DNA of 32,000 nt from Candidatus Nanopusillus sp. (GTDB lineage Archaea; Nanobdellota; Nanobdellia; Nanobdellales; Nanobdellaceae), in contig JAPWTW010000004.1 in the NCBI GenBank assembly GCA_028275885.1, positions 46,992 through 78,991 on the forward strand. Direction: 5' to 3'. Below are positions 3,313 through 23,509 of the stretch, piece after piece. The stretch's first letter is position 1. Every line of letters begins with the position of its first letter. Under the pieces are notes generated by a model that was not told the origin of the DNA, did not search any database, and saw nothing but the letters and a program-made list of their open reading frames with translations. The position numbers were made by a program, and so were the translations under genes.

Positions 3313-4074
3313 TTAGCTTGTTACACTTGGTATATTATTTAACTGGGAATATGGTACTTGTAATAAGAATTGACATAATGGCATTCCATTGACATTATTA
3401 TTTATACCTAATGCTGTACAATTTCCAGTTACTACTAATATTCCATTACTAACTGTTAAATTCAAATTACATCCATTTGCAGTATTATAATAGTTAATTA
3501 TCTTTAATAATGCACCAAATACTTGGTTTGTAATCCATGTTGGCAATTGTGCAGAACATTGTGCTGGACCTGGATATAATATTTGAGATGGAGAGGAAAT
3601 AATAATATTTGCTTGTCCTGATTTTATATCAAATGATGTAGCAGGAGAATAATTTCCAAATACATAACTTGTTGCTTGTGCTGGACTATAATATAGATCA
3701 TTAATATAATACTGACATTCTATATACATACAGTTAAGAGGCGTTATAGTATATCCTTCATGTTGACATTGACTAGAAGGGCCACCATATAATTGTAATA
3801 TTACACTACATGGAACAGCATTTGAACAGATATAATATCCAGGACTTACTTGTACAAGTCCATTTCCTATATTTTCATATTTTGTACAAAATGTTGTTGG
3901 GGTTGAACAATAGCTTGAACAATCTGAAACTGCCTGTTGTATTTGCGTATTTGATATTGTACTAATTTTTGATGATTGTTGTTGGAATAATTTAATTACA
4001 ATAACTGCTACTACTAACATTATTATTATTACAAATATTAACTGTACAGCTATATCTATACCTCTCCTTCTCAT
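3313..4074 (-). CDS. Cysteine-rich (12 Cys) secreted protein with a class-III (type IV pilin-like) signal-peptide-like N-terminus. Candidate major filament subunit or adhesin.
   Basis: The N-terminus MRRRG|IDIAVQLIFVIIIMLVVAVIVIKLF has a basic stretch, then Gly, then an immediate hydrophobic helix. The remainder is Ser/Thr/Asn/Gly-rich with 12 Cys and N-x-S/T sequons. It is the first gene of the operon and lies directly upstream of the platform gene with a 4-nt gap. Confidence 0.55.
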   Translation of the reverse strand: MRRRGIDIAVQLIFVIIIMLVVAVIVIKLFQQQSSKISTISNTQIQQAVSDCSSYCSTPTTFCTKYENIGNGLVQVSPGYYICSNAVPCSVILQLYGGPSSQCQHEGYTITPLNCMYIECQYYINDLYYSPAQATSYVFGNYSPATSFDIKSGQANIIISSPSQILYPGPAQCSAQLPTWITNQVFGALLKIINYYNTANGCNLNLTVSNGILVVTGNCTALGINNNVNGMPLCQFLLQVPYSQLNNIPSVTS

Positions 4075-4097
4075 AATTAAGGATAAACATTTTATTC

Positions 4098-4105
4098 TTT
4101 ATAAA
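4098..4105 (-). promoter_or_regulatory. TATA-box candidate for the pilus-like operon.
   Basis: TTTATAAA is centred about 27 nt upstream of the ATG at 4074, in the 36-nt gap after the DUF371 stop. This spacing is expected for a leaderless archaeal mRNA. The background is very AT-rich, so specificity is limited. Confidence 0.35.
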
Positions 4106-4110
4106 TATTT

Positions 4111-4518
4111 TTAATAATATATAATAAATTCTATATCTCTTTCATTCCTTAATCTTTCTATTAATCTTCTATCAATATCAATAGCACTCTTATTTGAATT
4201 TATTGCCAAAGTTCTATCATCAATATAATTGCTTTTTCTTATAACAATACTTCTATCATTTGTTAATAATAATCTTCTTGAACCATATGCAATTATCTTA
4301 TCTATTAATTCATCAACTTTAATTACAATTTTTATTTTTCCTTCATTTAATAAATGATCTTTAAGATCCTCTGGTAAATCTTTTACAGAGTAATTTGCAC
4401 TTATACCAATTATACAATCCCCTCTTTCAGTTAAATAATTGTCTTTAGTAATTTCTAAAGTACTTTTATGTGTTGCTTTTATTAATTTATTTCCCTTAGC
4501 TTTTATTACTAATTTCAT
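4111..4518 (-). CDS. DUF371-family protein (conserved archaeal protein of unknown function).
   Basis: 135 aa. The motif IKATHKSTLEITKDNYLTERGDCIIGI matches the H-x-T-T-x-E-I-T-K...RGDCI pattern I recall for DUF371. Confidence 0.6.
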   Translation of the reverse strand: MKLVIKAKGNKLIKATHKSTLEITKDNYLTERGDCIIGISANYSVKDLPEDLKDHLLNEGKIKIVIKVDELIDKIIAYGSRRLLLTNDRSIVIRKSNYIDDRTLAINSNKSAIDIDRRLIERLRNERDIEFIIYY

Positions 4519-16413: not shown

Positions 16414-16443
16414 TTATATTCCAGAAACTTTGTGATATAAAAA

Positions 16444-16451
16444 TTTTAAAT
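16444..16451 (+). promoter_or_regulatory. TATA-box candidate for the sRNA locus.
   Basis: TTTTAAAT is centred about 26 nt upstream of 16474, the first base of the GC-rich hairpin. Confidence 0.4.
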
Positions 16452-16473
16452 AATAAAAATATTATAATTTTAT

Positions 16474-16527
16474 CCCTACCTGCCATGCACTGGGGATATA
16501 TGAACCAGTTCCTCCAGGTAGGGAAGA
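16474..16527 (+). ncRNA. H/ACA-like guide RNA candidate (single pocket hairpin plus ANA trinucleotide).
   Basis: The lower stem CCCTACCTG (16474-16482) pairs with CAGGTAGGG (16515-16523) over 9 perfect bp. The internal loop has 6 nt (CCATGC) on one side and 5 nt (TCCTC) on the other. The upper stem ACTGG (16489-16493) pairs with CCAGT (16505-16509). The 11-nt apical loop GGATATATGAA contains GA dinucleotides. AGA at 16525-16527 lies just 3' of the stem, 15-17 nt from the upper-stem base. The locus is a GC-rich island in an AT-rich intergenic region. Confidence 0.45.
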
Positions 16528-16528
16528 A

Positions 16529-16581
16529 TAATGATGTAGTTGGCTTGAAACTGAAAAATGATGAATACGGCTACGCTGATA
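16529..16581 (+). ncRNA. C/D-box sRNA (2'-O-methylation guide) with a complete C, D', C', D box set.
   Basis: C box ATGATGT is at 16531-16537, followed by a 13-nt guide. D' box CTGA is at 16551-16554, followed by a 3-nt spacer. C' box ATGATGA is at 16558-16564, followed by an 11-nt guide. D box CTGA is at 16576-16579. Box order and spacing match archaeal C/D sRNAs. The locus is intergenic and the boxes read only on the + strand. Confidence 0.7.
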
Positions 16582-16588
16582 AAAATAT

Positions 16589-17215
16589 TTATAATATATT
16601 TTTTATAATATCTTTGGCTTTAGAAGCATATTTTTTATATTTTTTCGAATATTCATCAAATATATTGTAAAATAAGTCTTCATCATAGCTATATTTTTTC
16701 ATCAAATAAGCTAATATTTTTATATCATTCCAGTCCTTTTCTTCCTTTCTATTTAAATAGGTAAATATTTTATCTACTAATAGATATTCCATTTTAGCAA
16801 CATATAATTTTATTTTCTTTTTGTTCAAATTTAATTCTATTTCATTATATGGTACTTCTTTATCTTTAAATAATATACTTATGCTAGGGCCATATTTATA
16901 TTCAATTTTAATTCCATCATATCCAAATATTATTCTTTCCTTAATTGATAAATTTGATAATTTTCTATATATTATTTCTTTTGCATTTACTTTTTTATTT
17001 TTATTTATTATAAAATCTATATCATTTGTACTTCTATATTTCTCATGAGTATAATAATATATATATGCAGCTACAGCCATTCCACCTATTAATACTGGTT
17101 TTACTTTATCATTATCACTAAATATTTTTAATATACTTTCAAGATTTTTTATTGTAGGCTTATCAGTTAATTTATAACCTTCCTGTGATATATTGTTTGA
17201 TATTACACGTGGCAT
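16589..17215 (-). CDS. Nucleotidyltransferase, AbiEii/DUF1814-like (type IV toxin-like). No adjacent antitoxin gene.
   Basis: 208 aa. LIGGMAVAAY...RSTNDIDFII is a GG...D-x-D NTase motif. A later LLVDKIFTYLNRKEEKDWNDIKIL resembles the conserved AbiEii helix (K..A...R...D..D). This is a motif-level call only. Confidence 0.4.
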   Translation of the reverse strand: MPRVISNNISQEGYKLTDKPTIKNLESILKIFSDNDKVKPVLIGGMAVAAYIYYYTHEKYRSTNDIDFIINKNKKVNAKEIIYRKLSNLSIKERIIFGYDGIKIEYKYGPSISILFKDKEVPYNEIELNLNKKKIKLYVAKMEYLLVDKIFTYLNRKEEKDWNDIKILAYLMKKYSYDEDLFYNIFDEYSKKYKKYASKAKDIIKNIL

Positions 17216-22020: not shown

Positions 22021-22752
22021 ATGATAAAAGTAGGAACCTGCGGATTTCCTATATCAAGAAAAAAATATTATGAAGAATTTAATGTAATAGAAATAAATAG
22101 TACATTTTATTCAATACCTGATATTGAATGGGTGAAAAAAATAAGAGATGAAGCACCTAAAAATTTTGAATTTACATTTAAAGCATTTCAAGGTATTACA
22201 CATGATGTAAATTCTTTTACATGGAAAAGATCAAAAATAAAAAATTATAAAGAATTAAAGGGAAAAGTTGGATATTTAAGAAATACAAAAGAAGTATTTG
22301 AATTTTGGGAAAAACAAGAAGAAATTGCAAATATATTAAGGGCAAATATAATTGTTATTCAATTACCAAATTCATTTAAAGATAAAAAAGAAAATATTGA
22401 AAATGCATATAATTTCTTTAATTCAATTGGTAAAAAATATAAAATAGCAATAGAACTAAGGGGGTGGAGTAAAGAAAATAGGGAAAAGATATGTAAAGAA
22501 TTTGATTTAATAGATATTGTAGATATAAATGTTGAAGATCCAGTATATGATTCTGATATAAAATATTATAGATTACATGGATTACATGAAGGAAATAGGT
22601 TAATATATAGTTATGATTATTCAAAAGAAGAATTGAATAAAATAAAGGAAAAAGTATTAAAATATAATAAAAAAGATAGTTATGTAATGTTTAATAATTC
22701 AATGATGTATGAAAATGCAAAGGAATTTATGGAATTAATAAAAAATGTATAA
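22021..22752 (+). CDS. DUF72 (UPF0759) family protein.
   Basis: 243 aa. The pattern KVGTCGF...YYEEFNVIEINSTFYSIP......P.NFEFTFKA.QGITH is typical of DUF72. Confidence 0.75.
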   Translation: MIKVGTCGFPISRKKYYEEFNVIEINSTFYSIPDIEWVKKIRDEAPKNFEFTFKAFQGITHDVNSFTWKRSKIKNYKELKGKVGYLRNTKEVFEFWEKQEEIANILRANIIVIQLPNSFKDKKENIENAYNFFNSIGKKYKIAIELRGWSKENREKICKEFDLIDIVDINVEDPVYDSDIKYYRLHGLHEGNRLIYSYDYSKEELNKIKEKVLKYNKKDSYVMFNNSMMYENAKEFMELIKNV

Positions 22753-23509
22753 TTATTTATTAAGAATAAAATATAATGGAGAGAGTTATCATGGAATTGC
22801 ATATCAAAAAAATGTAAAAACAATTTCAGGGGAGATTTTAAATTATTTTAATATAAAAGAATTTAAATTATCAATTGTTTCAAGAACTGATAAGGGAGTA
22901 AGTGCGGAAGAGAATTATATTGTTATATCTTCAGATAGAAATATTGATTTTTCAAATTTTCGAAATAATGATATAAAAATATTGAATGTATATAAATTAA
23001 AAGAATTTATTAATATTAGGAAATTTTCTAGAGGTAAATTATATGAGTATAAATTACCAAAAAAATTATTTGAGAAAAAATATATGCCAAAATATTTAAT
23101 AAATAATGAAAAAATATTAATAAAATCTGAAGAAAAAGAATTTGATATAAATAAATATATAGAAGCATCAAAGCATTTTATAGGTATAAAAAGTTTTCAT
23201 AATTTTGCAAAAGGTAAAGTAAGAGATCCTATATGTAATATAACAAAATTTGAAGTAATTGAAGATAATGACTTTTATATAAATTATATTGAAGGAAATA
23301 AATTTCTATATGAAATGATAAGAAGAATTGTTACATTTTTAATTTCTGTAGGTTATAATTTGTTTCCTTTGGATTTGATTGAAAAAGTTTTTATATATAA
23401 TCTAGAACCAAAACCCTTTCCTTCAGATCCAAAATATTTAACATTAAAAAAGGTTTACTTAGATTGGAAAGAACTATATAAATATATTGAAGATGTTATT
23501 GAAATATAA
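22745..23509 (+). CDS. truA: tRNA pseudouridine synthase A (TruA/Pus1-like).
   Basis: 254 aa with YNGESYHGIAYQ and the catalytic-Asp motif SRTDKGVSA. Confidence 0.75.
   Translation: MYNYLLRIKYNGESYHGIAYQKNVKTISGEILNYFNIKEFKLSIVSRTDKGVSAEENYIVISSDRNIDFSNFRNNDIKILNVYKLKEFINIRKFSRGKLYEYKLPKKLFEKKYMPKYLINNEKILIKSEEKEFDINKYIEASKHFIGIKSFHNFAKGKVRDPICNITKFEVIEDNDFYINYIEGNKFLYEMIRRIVTFLISVGYNLFPLDLIEKVFIYNLEPKPFPSDPKYLTLKKVYLDWKELYKYIEDVIEI

Follow-up and report, generated by a model that had tools for sequence, protein, structure and literature searches.

Guide RNAs that join an H/ACA module to a C/D module have already been described in Pyrococcus. The Rfam family RF00065 consists of the Pyrococcus H/ACA guide Pab21 (also called Pf1) together with the C/D sRNA annotated as snoR9 (sR9). 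In P. abyssi, Pab21 and sR9 are made as one transcript, which Northern blots detect both with the C/D part and lacking it (PMC2377435). The K-loop of Pab21 is protected by L7Ae (PMC3726423). By the rules for archaeal H/ACA RNAs, the upper helix (H2) measures 5-6 bp and the ANA box follows at a distance of 14-15 nt (PMC2377435). The same ANA spacing is given in a second study, where pockets of 6/5 form the largest Pyrococcus subfamily ("65") and the GA stem has 10 layers in 14 of 15 productive Pyrococcus folds (PMC4652768). The Pyrococcus guide Pab19 targets U1017 in helix 34 of the 16S rRNA and was shown in vitro to direct modification on the substrate GAGAGGAGGUGCAUGGCCGCCGUC; archaeal 16S helix 34, that of N. 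equitans included, reads GAGAGGAGGUGCAUGGCC (alignment in the supplement of PMC4644070). N. equitans possesses a Cbf5 gene and an expressed H/ACA sRNA, and the promoters of its sRNA and tRNA genes carry TTTAAA 26 nt before the start (PMC3491384 for the sRNA and promoter data). In the literature that was searched, we found no paper pairing Nanopusillus with pseudouridine or with C/D box, and none on guide RNAs in Nanopusillus. Because RF00065 (Pab21 plus sR9) already joins H/ACA and C/D guides, the fused design is established in the Thermococcales and is not new. The element described below is a further example of it, and the statement in the earlier note on this DNA that such fusions are rare was too strong.

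The element lies in a 32-kb window, by which we mean the whole stretch of DNA that was analyzed. The genes around it are archaeal; among them are those for split RNA polymerase subunits, the ribosomal proteins S12, S7, L10P, L1, and L11, NusG/Spt5, FtsZ, and a histone. The XerA-type recombinase encoded beside the element showed 91-95% identity to those of Ca. Nanopusillus/Nanobsidianus, 81% to that of strain YN1, and 74% to that of Nanobdella aerobiophila. Because of these archaeal flanking genes and XerA identities, the window is assigned to a nanoarchaeon of the Nanopusillus/Nanobsidianus group, which are tiny archaea of hot springs.

A hairpin and a C/D module were read directly in the sequence at 16474-16581, and every base agreed with the anatomy described earlier, namely, a 9-bp lower stem, a 6/5 internal loop, a 5-bp upper stem, an 11-nt apical loop, and a C/D pattern. 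The features are collected in the table. As shown, the lower stem is a perfect 9-bp pairing of CCCUACCUG (16474-16482) with CAGGUAGGG (16515-16523), to which U16473-A16524 possibly adds a tenth pair. After the upper stem, 14 nt lead up to the end of the lower stem; one A, the AGA box, and AUA follow, and box C begins directly afterward at 16531, so the C/D module does start 3 nt after AGA as had been stated. Counted from the upper stem as drawn, the distance to the ANA box is 15 nt; counted from the first guide-target pair, it is 14 nt. The 7-nt linker AAGAAUA joins the hairpin to the C/D module. The latter follows the pattern AUGAUGU-13-CUGA-3-AUGAUGA-11-CUGA, which has the order and spacing of archaeal C/D box sRNAs, where guides measure about 12 nt and the C'-D' spacer is short; with all four boxes in order and invariant in the 10 relatives, the description of a complete C/D sRNA was borne out.

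Table. Features of the hairpin and C/D element and of the flanking candidate signals (positions in the window).
Feature	Position	Strand	Remarks
TTTAAA, candidate box A/TATA	16445..16450	+	about 27 nt before the likely start A16472; weak, region about 80% A+T
Lower stem P1, 5' strand	16473..16482	+	U + CCCUACCUG
5' guide strand of pocket, GCCAUG + C	16482..16488	+	G16482-G16487 complementary to 16S C1054-C1059; CAUGC invariant
Internal loop, 6/5 nt	CCAUGC 16483-16488 opposite UCCUC 16510-16514	+	direct sequence reading
Upper stem P2/H2, 5 bp	ACUGG 16489-16493 with CCAGU 16505-16509	+	sequence and alignment of relatives
K-loop GGAUAUAUGAA, 11-nt apical loop	16494..16504	+	invariant ends; likeness to the RF00065 (Pab21) consensus
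3' guide strand of pocket, U + CCUCC + A	16510..16516	+	C16511-C16515 complementary to 16S G1047-G1051; CCUC invariant
Lower stem P1, 3' strand	16515..16524	+	CAGGUAGGG + A
ANA box, AGA	16525..16527	+	AUA in Nanobdella; spacing rule 14-15 nt
Box C, AUGAUGU	16531..16537	+	invariant in relatives; same variant in N. equitans sRNA13
D' guide, 13 nt, AGUUGGCUUGAAA	16538..16550	+	U16546 is the fifth base from box D'
Box D', CUGA	16551..16554	+	sequence; conserved in relatives; followed by AAA spacer
Box C', AUGAUGA	16558..16564	+	sequence; conserved in relatives
D guide, 11 nt, AUACGGCUACG	16565..16575	+	C16571 is the fifth base from box D
Box D, CUGA	16576..16579	+	sequence; conserved in relatives
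Run of six T, candidate archaeal terminator	16599..16604	+	20 nt after box D; inferred

Within the 32-kb window, the full C/D box pattern occurred once, and no other stem-GA...GA-stem hairpin of like quality was found outside tRNA and coding sequence. The hairpin is itself the minimum-free-energy fold (-24.1 kcal/mol, z = -3.2), and 2 of 200 shuffled sequences folded equally well. The element has a G+C content of 36% compared with 24.7% for the whole window, as expected from its earlier description as a GC-rich intergenic island, and is the sole such island in the window besides the tRNA-Lys gene. We consider it probable that a single gene of about 110 nt for a composite guide RNA covers roughly 16472-16581 on the + strand.

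The element was found in all 10 related loci, where the order L1-L10P-(AbiEii-like)-sRNA-XerA is kept; the element has the divergent XerA gene on one side and, on the other, L10P or a variable AbiEii-like gene. Its identity was 95-98% within Nanopusillus/Nanobsidianus and 81-83% in YN1 and Nanobdella, and the 3' flank was unalignable. Invariant among the 10 relatives were the four boxes, the ends GGA and UGAA of the apical loop, and the pocket cores CAUGC and CCUC; the middle of the K-loop varied, reading ACAT in one locus (L005). Compensatory changes were observed in both stems. In the lower stem, an A-U pair is replaced by G-C in YN1 and a C-G pair by U-A in Nanobdella, and the fourth pair of the upper stem is G-C in seven sequences, G-U in two, and A-U in one. 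The sole pairs broken in relatives are the top two of the lower stem (16481/16516 and 16482/16515). Over the alignment, 96.7% of the cells were paired, compared with 27-64% when the partners were slid, and RNAalifold independently recovered the same hairpin. The covariance check in homologous loci that had been suggested earlier was therefore answered in favor of the hairpin: it is conserved in 10 of 10 loci, three pairs in all carry compensatory changes, and the observed covariation score was reached by 4 of 500 shuffles, a result that gives support rather than proof because the sample is small and covers three lineages only. The position of the ANA box is likewise fixed in all three lineages, being AGA in most genomes and AUA in Nanobdella. 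Judged by these comparisons, the hairpin and the C/D element are a real, conserved small RNA gene.

The best Rfam match was RF00065 (snoR9), to which 16472-16593 aligned end to end in a permissive search of 261 nt with a score of 34.4 bits (E = 1.2e-6), which is far below the 90-bit gathering threshold of the family, and the element is not filed as a member. In this alignment, the ends of the K-loop and all four boxes agree. Further sub-threshold matches for the C/D part were sR5, sR28, and snoPyro_CD, at 17-33 bits; the gathering score was reached in the Rfam search by tRNA alone.

The hairpin was then measured against the rules for archaeal H/ACA guides. The lower stem of 9-10 bp, with compensatory changes at two positions, compares with about 7-10 bp expected, and the 6/5 pocket as drawn lies within the 5-8 nt expected for the 5' guide and the 5-6 nt expected for the 3' guide. 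H2 has five Watson-Crick pairs and AGA lies at 14-15 nt, both in agreement with the published rules (PMC2377435). The apical loop permits three stacked G.A pairs (G16494.A16504, G16495.A16503, and A16496.G16502), and its signature GGA...UGAA is invariant and has the same ends as the K-loop of Pab21, which strengthens the earlier suggestion of a possible K-loop. On this signature, the apical loop is a K-loop like that of Pab21 and is a predicted L7Ae site. The hairpin thus has the parts of an archaeal H/ACA guide: a covarying lower stem, a pocket of 6/5 nt, an upper helix of 5 bp topped by a K-loop, and, at 14-15 nt, an ANA box.

Other measures depart from the rules, and they bear on a rather unlikely reading in which the working guide is the C/D half only and the hairpin is an L7Ae-binding K-loop stem with another role, such as a 5' stability or processing element, a platform for C/D RNP assembly, or a decayed H/ACA motif. 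The GA stem has 8 layers as drawn rather than 10, and a total of 9-10 requires that a C.U layer and a G-C pair within the pocket be included. A stretch of 20 nt separates the last G.A pair from the ANA box in each of the three lineages, one short of the 21 nt that we counted from the sequences of Pab21, Pab19, and N. equitans hairpin 1. The box is AGA, not the commonest ACA, and the pairing with the target proposed below is non-canonical and weaker in Nanobdella. Moreover, 5' K-turn elements may be regulatory and not guides (PMC4247193). Against these points, an 8-layer GA stem and a non-canonical spacer do not prevent Pab19 from working in vitro, and the ANA box holds its position in each of the three lineages. 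In addition, no unpaired part of the hairpin is as conserved as the two strands of the pocket, in which CAUGC and CCUC are invariant, and together these strands complement a single 16S site, proven to be an H/ACA target in Pyrococcus.

All rRNA targets were judged on the rRNAs of N. equitans and others as surrogates for those of the Nanopusillus family. The surrogate DPANN rRNA operons, a few in number, were taken from a metagenome scan with GCCCGTCAAGCCARC, which returned mostly unrelated DNA and none of the Nanopusillus family; two scans of viral contigs yielded no rRNA of this family either. For E. coli numbering, compared with standard primer positions, we took G1053 to be the G of GCAUGG, A1408 to follow GUC, and G1508 to be the archaeal G in GGUAGCC. 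The target previously predicted from strict junction pairing, GAGGA-U-N-GCAUGG, did not hold: it matched none of the 16S sequences read, and no convincing site was found in four archaeal 16S and two 23S sequences from metagenome loci, these two being the only 23S sequences scanned with the full pattern. A substring search of a seven-species archaeal 23S alignment returned GCAUGG once (M. maripaludis) and neither CAUGGC nor GAGGAU. A recurrent partial match at GAGGAUUGUAACUC (E. coli ~1310) was dropped, as only 3 bases were paired on the 5'-guide side. The target of Pab21, GGAA-UU-GGCGGG, was also considered and, by reasoning, does not fit this pocket.

In the surrogate rRNAs, a fit was found instead in 16S helix 34, where the pocket can pair in the form 5'-GGAGG-U-G-CAUGGC-3', with E. 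coli U1052 as the predicted target uridine. The two guide strands, CCUCC on the 3' side and GCCAUG on the 5' side, pair with the 16S positions listed in the table, leaving U1052-G1053 free. For this fit, a single guide base next to the upper stem must stay unpaired on either side, and the lower stem must open at its top two pairs, which are exactly the two non-conserved ones. In the 16S rRNA of N. equitans, U1018 was the sole site of such quality, with 11 Watson-Crick pairs (5+6), and the fit extended to the consensus shared by six of the seven archaeal 16S sequences aligned. An equal fit occurred in 85 of 5000 shuffled 4.4-kb sequences under a Watson-Crick-only test, which replaced a looser null (G.U allowed, at least 10 pairs) that was uninformative, being reached by 760 of 2000 shuffles. 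Where a DPANN-type 16S has U at 1049, the 3'-guide helix would be without its middle pair. For Nanobdella, whose pocket strand is GGCAUGC, the pocket-target pairing falls to about 8-9 bp; this strand predicts GCAUGCC in the 16S of Nanobdella itself, or else weaker pairing. If the helix-34 target is true, the family 16S holds GGAGGUGCAUGGC with U at 1052 (E. coli 1043-1060).

Both guides of the C/D half also found 16S sites among the surrogate rRNAs, with 8-9 or more contiguous pairs covering the fifth position. Against CGUCAAGCCAACC of several DPANN-type 16S rRNAs, the D' guide forms an unbroken run of 10-11 Watson-Crick pairs, and against the 16S of N. equitans a run of 8; U16546 faces A1408. 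For the D guide there are two candidate sites: GGUAGCCGUAGG, close to the 3' end of 16S (E. coli 1504-1515), with nine Watson-Crick pairs and C16571 facing G1508, or alternatively CGUAGCCGG, with eight Watson-Crick pairs and C16571 facing about G584; it had no matches in the surrogate 23S. At least nine pairs were obtained by chance in 4-5% of shuffles. Apparently, then, the D' guide is directed to 16S A1408 and the D guide to G1508 or about G584. The D guide of Nanobdella, AGACGACUGCU, differs at four positions and fitted none of the surrogate rRNAs, which predicts either a changed 16S in that organism, for example GUAGUCGU, or functional drift. If the A1408 target is true, the family 16S reads GUCAAGCCAACC at E. 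coli 1400-1412. Taken alone, the C/D half is very probably a functional guide; that both halves are functional guides is, in our estimate, somewhat more probable than the contrary. A composite guide RNA for 16S, with an H/ACA half for U1052 and a C/D half, is the reading that we favor with moderate assurance.

The expression signals bear on whether the two modules belong to one transcript. The TATA candidate claimed upstream of the hairpin was found as TTTAAA about 27 nt before the likely start, a spacing like that of N. equitans promoters; it carries little weight in surroundings of about 80% A+T. T-runs were also present within 5-20 nt of box D in all relatives, although the flank is unalignable, and neither TTTAAA nor T-runs discriminate in DNA so A+T-rich. 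Just upstream of TTTAAA, an invariant ATATAAAAATTTT was observed, which may instead serve the divergent XerA gene. The linker between the modules, at 7 nt, is too short to hold a promoter, in agreement with the earlier statement that no TATA lies between them. The K-loop contains ATATAT (16496-16501) at a promoter-like distance from 16523-16525. This allows a very unlikely reading in which the hairpin and the C/D sRNA are two separate genes whose RNAs are at no time joined, the latter having its own start with the A+T-rich middle of the K-loop serving as TATA about 26 nt before A16524. Such a start would recall sRNA13 of N. equitans, a stand-alone RNA with its own promoter that has box C and the D' guide in common with the element. 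Nevertheless, the modules are just 7 nt apart, the loop middle varies among relatives and is flanked by a G+C-rich stem, and the Pyrococcus counterpart is one transcript; it is unlikely that the K-loop middle drives a C/D start. As for the protein machinery, none of the genes for Cbf5, Nop10, Gar1, L7Ae, Nop5, and fibrillarin lies within the 32-kb window.

It is hardly credible that there is no RNA gene, the hairpin and boxes being due to chance, to a - strand terminator of the AbiEii-like gene, or to a 61-aa ORF (16485-16670): such an ORF exists mechanically and the hairpin also folds on the - strand, where A+T-rich DNA follows, but this reading is already contradicted by the strand-specific conservation of the four boxes, K-loop ends, and guides, by the compensatory changes in the stems, by an element that is 81-98% identical while its flanks are unalignable, and by its persistence in Nanobdella, where the AbiEii-like gene is absent. 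The ORF itself is not credible as coding, since one-base indels in the loop and the unalignable 3' flank break its frame in relatives.

For the composite guide RNA, we propose the following mechanism. The primary transcript probably carries both modules, as in Pyrococcus Pab21/sR9, and, again by analogy, may be partly processed into separate forms. L7Ae would bind the K-loop, and the lower stem and AGA box would dock Cbf5-Nop10-Gar1. The pocket would then pair with 16S helix 34 and present U1052 for conversion to pseudouridine. The C/D half, 7 nt later, would bind L7Ae, Nop5, and fibrillarin; its D' guide would direct 2'-O-methylation of 16S A1408, and its D guide would direct methylation of G1508 or, alternatively, of about G584.

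The element reveals no new mechanism. It widens the range of H/ACA plus C/D composites from the Thermococcales to the Nanopusillus family; the sole nanoarchaeon studied by RNA sequencing showed one unrelated H/ACA RNA and no composite. The element may share ancestry with Pab21/sR9 or may have arisen by an independent fusion, and a fusion shared with the Thermococcales would bear on the disputed placement of the Nanoarchaeota. The element also predicts three modifications at the decoding center of a minimal ribosome, which are concrete and checkable. Further, it would be a second natural case, besides Pab19, of a short upper helix and a non-canonical pocket directed to the same uridine, and could probe how strict the geometric rules are. 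A more speculative thought, to which we give little credence, is that the three guides (helix 34 U1052, helix 44 A1408, and helix 45 G1508), which all address the 16S decoding region, make a particle with Cbf5 and fibrillarin modules into a single three-point folding clamp for the 30S decoding center during assembly in a genome-reduced symbiont, and also that the fusion is either shared with the Thermococcales or convergent.

Compared with the known systems, this hairpin combines a Pab21-type layout with a predicted target of the Pab19 type. As in Pab21/sR9, one H/ACA hairpin capped by a K-loop comes first, then an ANA box and, a few nt on, a double-guide C/D sRNA; the K-loop consensus of Pab21/RF00065, GGGGAAuCGUGAACC (GGGGA...UGAACC), agrees at both ends with GGGGAUAUAUGAACC here. 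In contrast, all three guides differ. The target of Pab21 is 16S U891 and not helix 34; its upper helix has two pairs more than the one here, and the box here is AGA instead of ACA. With Pab19, the hairpin shares a 16S uridine as its predicted target, a 3'-guide core CCUCC (CCUCCU in Pab19) pairing with GGAGG directly 5' of the U, an 8-layer GA stem as first drawn, three stacked G.A pairs, a non-canonical spacer (three bases in Pab19 as first drawn), and a box other than ACA (AUA in Pab19, which is active in vitro). However, Pab19 contains a K-turn in place of the K-loop, an additional stem-loop at its 5' side, and a 15-nt 5' guide that pairs further downstream (GCCGCCGUC), and it has no C/D partner.

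N. equitans, which belongs to the same phylum, offers counterparts of the C/D guides. Its sRNA13 has the same box C, AUGAUGU, and a D' guide for the same 16S adenosine (16S-1373); the two guides differ where the 16S sequences are expected to differ (GGUGG compared with GGUUGG, for CCACC and the expected CCAACC here, respectively). The D' guide of sRNA18, AUACGGCUACC, resembles the D guide here. These counterparts are, however, found in two stand-alone sRNAs with no upstream hairpin, and the only H/ACA RNA reported for N. equitans is an unlike double hairpin of 159 nt. Eukaryotic composite C/D-H/ACA scaRNAs such as U85 similarly place a methylation guide and a pseudouridylation guide on one RNA. 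They differ from this element in their eukaryotic domain order and size, their spliceosomal snRNA targets, the lack of a K-loop in the H/ACA part, and their residence in Cajal bodies.

In the C/D half of the composite guide RNA, RNAalifold joined the part of the D′ guide nearest box C (GUAGUUG) to the part of the D guide nearest box D (CGGCUAC) through seven base pairs, two of which were G·U. The substitutions found in Nanobdella, a more divergent lineage, retained this pairing, changing U-A to U·G and U·G to U-A. As modelled, such a helix could sequester both guides. Alternatively, the pairing could have arisen by chance, because purine transitions opposite U never break pairing.

Upstream of the hairpin, every relative, even the divergent ones, had an identical ATATAAAAATTTT stretch. 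By contrast with this stretch, the bases separating it from the hairpin were variable among the relatives, and nine of them were deleted in the divergent lineage YN1. Judged from the sequence, ATATAAAAATTTT may be a promoter element, either shared or directed toward the recombinase gene XerA, which would then be nearly leaderless. Approximately 2.3 kb of additional DNA adjoined XerA in six relatives (L001, L004, L005, L006, L009, and L010), where it separated the recombinase gene from that for arginine decarboxylase. This segment was missing from the window and from the loci L002, L003, and L008.

The AbiEii/DUF6036-type gene in close relatives showed 50-78% identity or was fragmentary, compared to 87-96% identity for the neighbouring genes, and it was without a match in Nanobdella. 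Elsewhere, the TruA/Pus1-type synthase was the sole pseudouridine-related protein in the window. The histone-fold gene was located within a G+C-rich island, and its 75-aa ORF was shorter than the 100-aa ORF cut-off.

Coordinates of the features in the window
Feature	Position	Strand	Remark
ATATAAAAATTTT	16436-16448		Between sRNA and XerA
GUAGUUG, D′ guide end	16537-16543		
CGGCUAC, D guide end	16568-16574		
AbiEii/DUF6036-type nucleotidyltransferase gene	16589-17215	-	Adjoins sRNA 3′ end
TruA/Pus1-type stand-alone pseudouridine synthase gene	22745-23509	+	
Archaeal histone-fold protein, 75 aa	24831-25058	+	PF00808, E = 1.9e-15

Regarding the surrogate rRNAs, the 23S rRNA gene of L101, a metagenome locus from an uncultured DPANN-type archaeon, contained a group I intron (3994-4255). 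For N. equitans, another surrogate, the D guide of sRNA13 (GAGGAGGUGAUA), for which no target is given in PMC3491384 (supplement), showed complementarity to the 16S rRNA 3′ end (AUCACCUCC). The D′ guide of sRNA18 (AUACGGCUACC) matched, through 10 Watson-Crick pairs, the sequence GGUAGCCGUA close to the 3′ end of 16S. The published site for this guide is 16S-522 (PMC3491384, supplement); by sequence complementarity, the GGUAGCCGUA site looks better than the published one.
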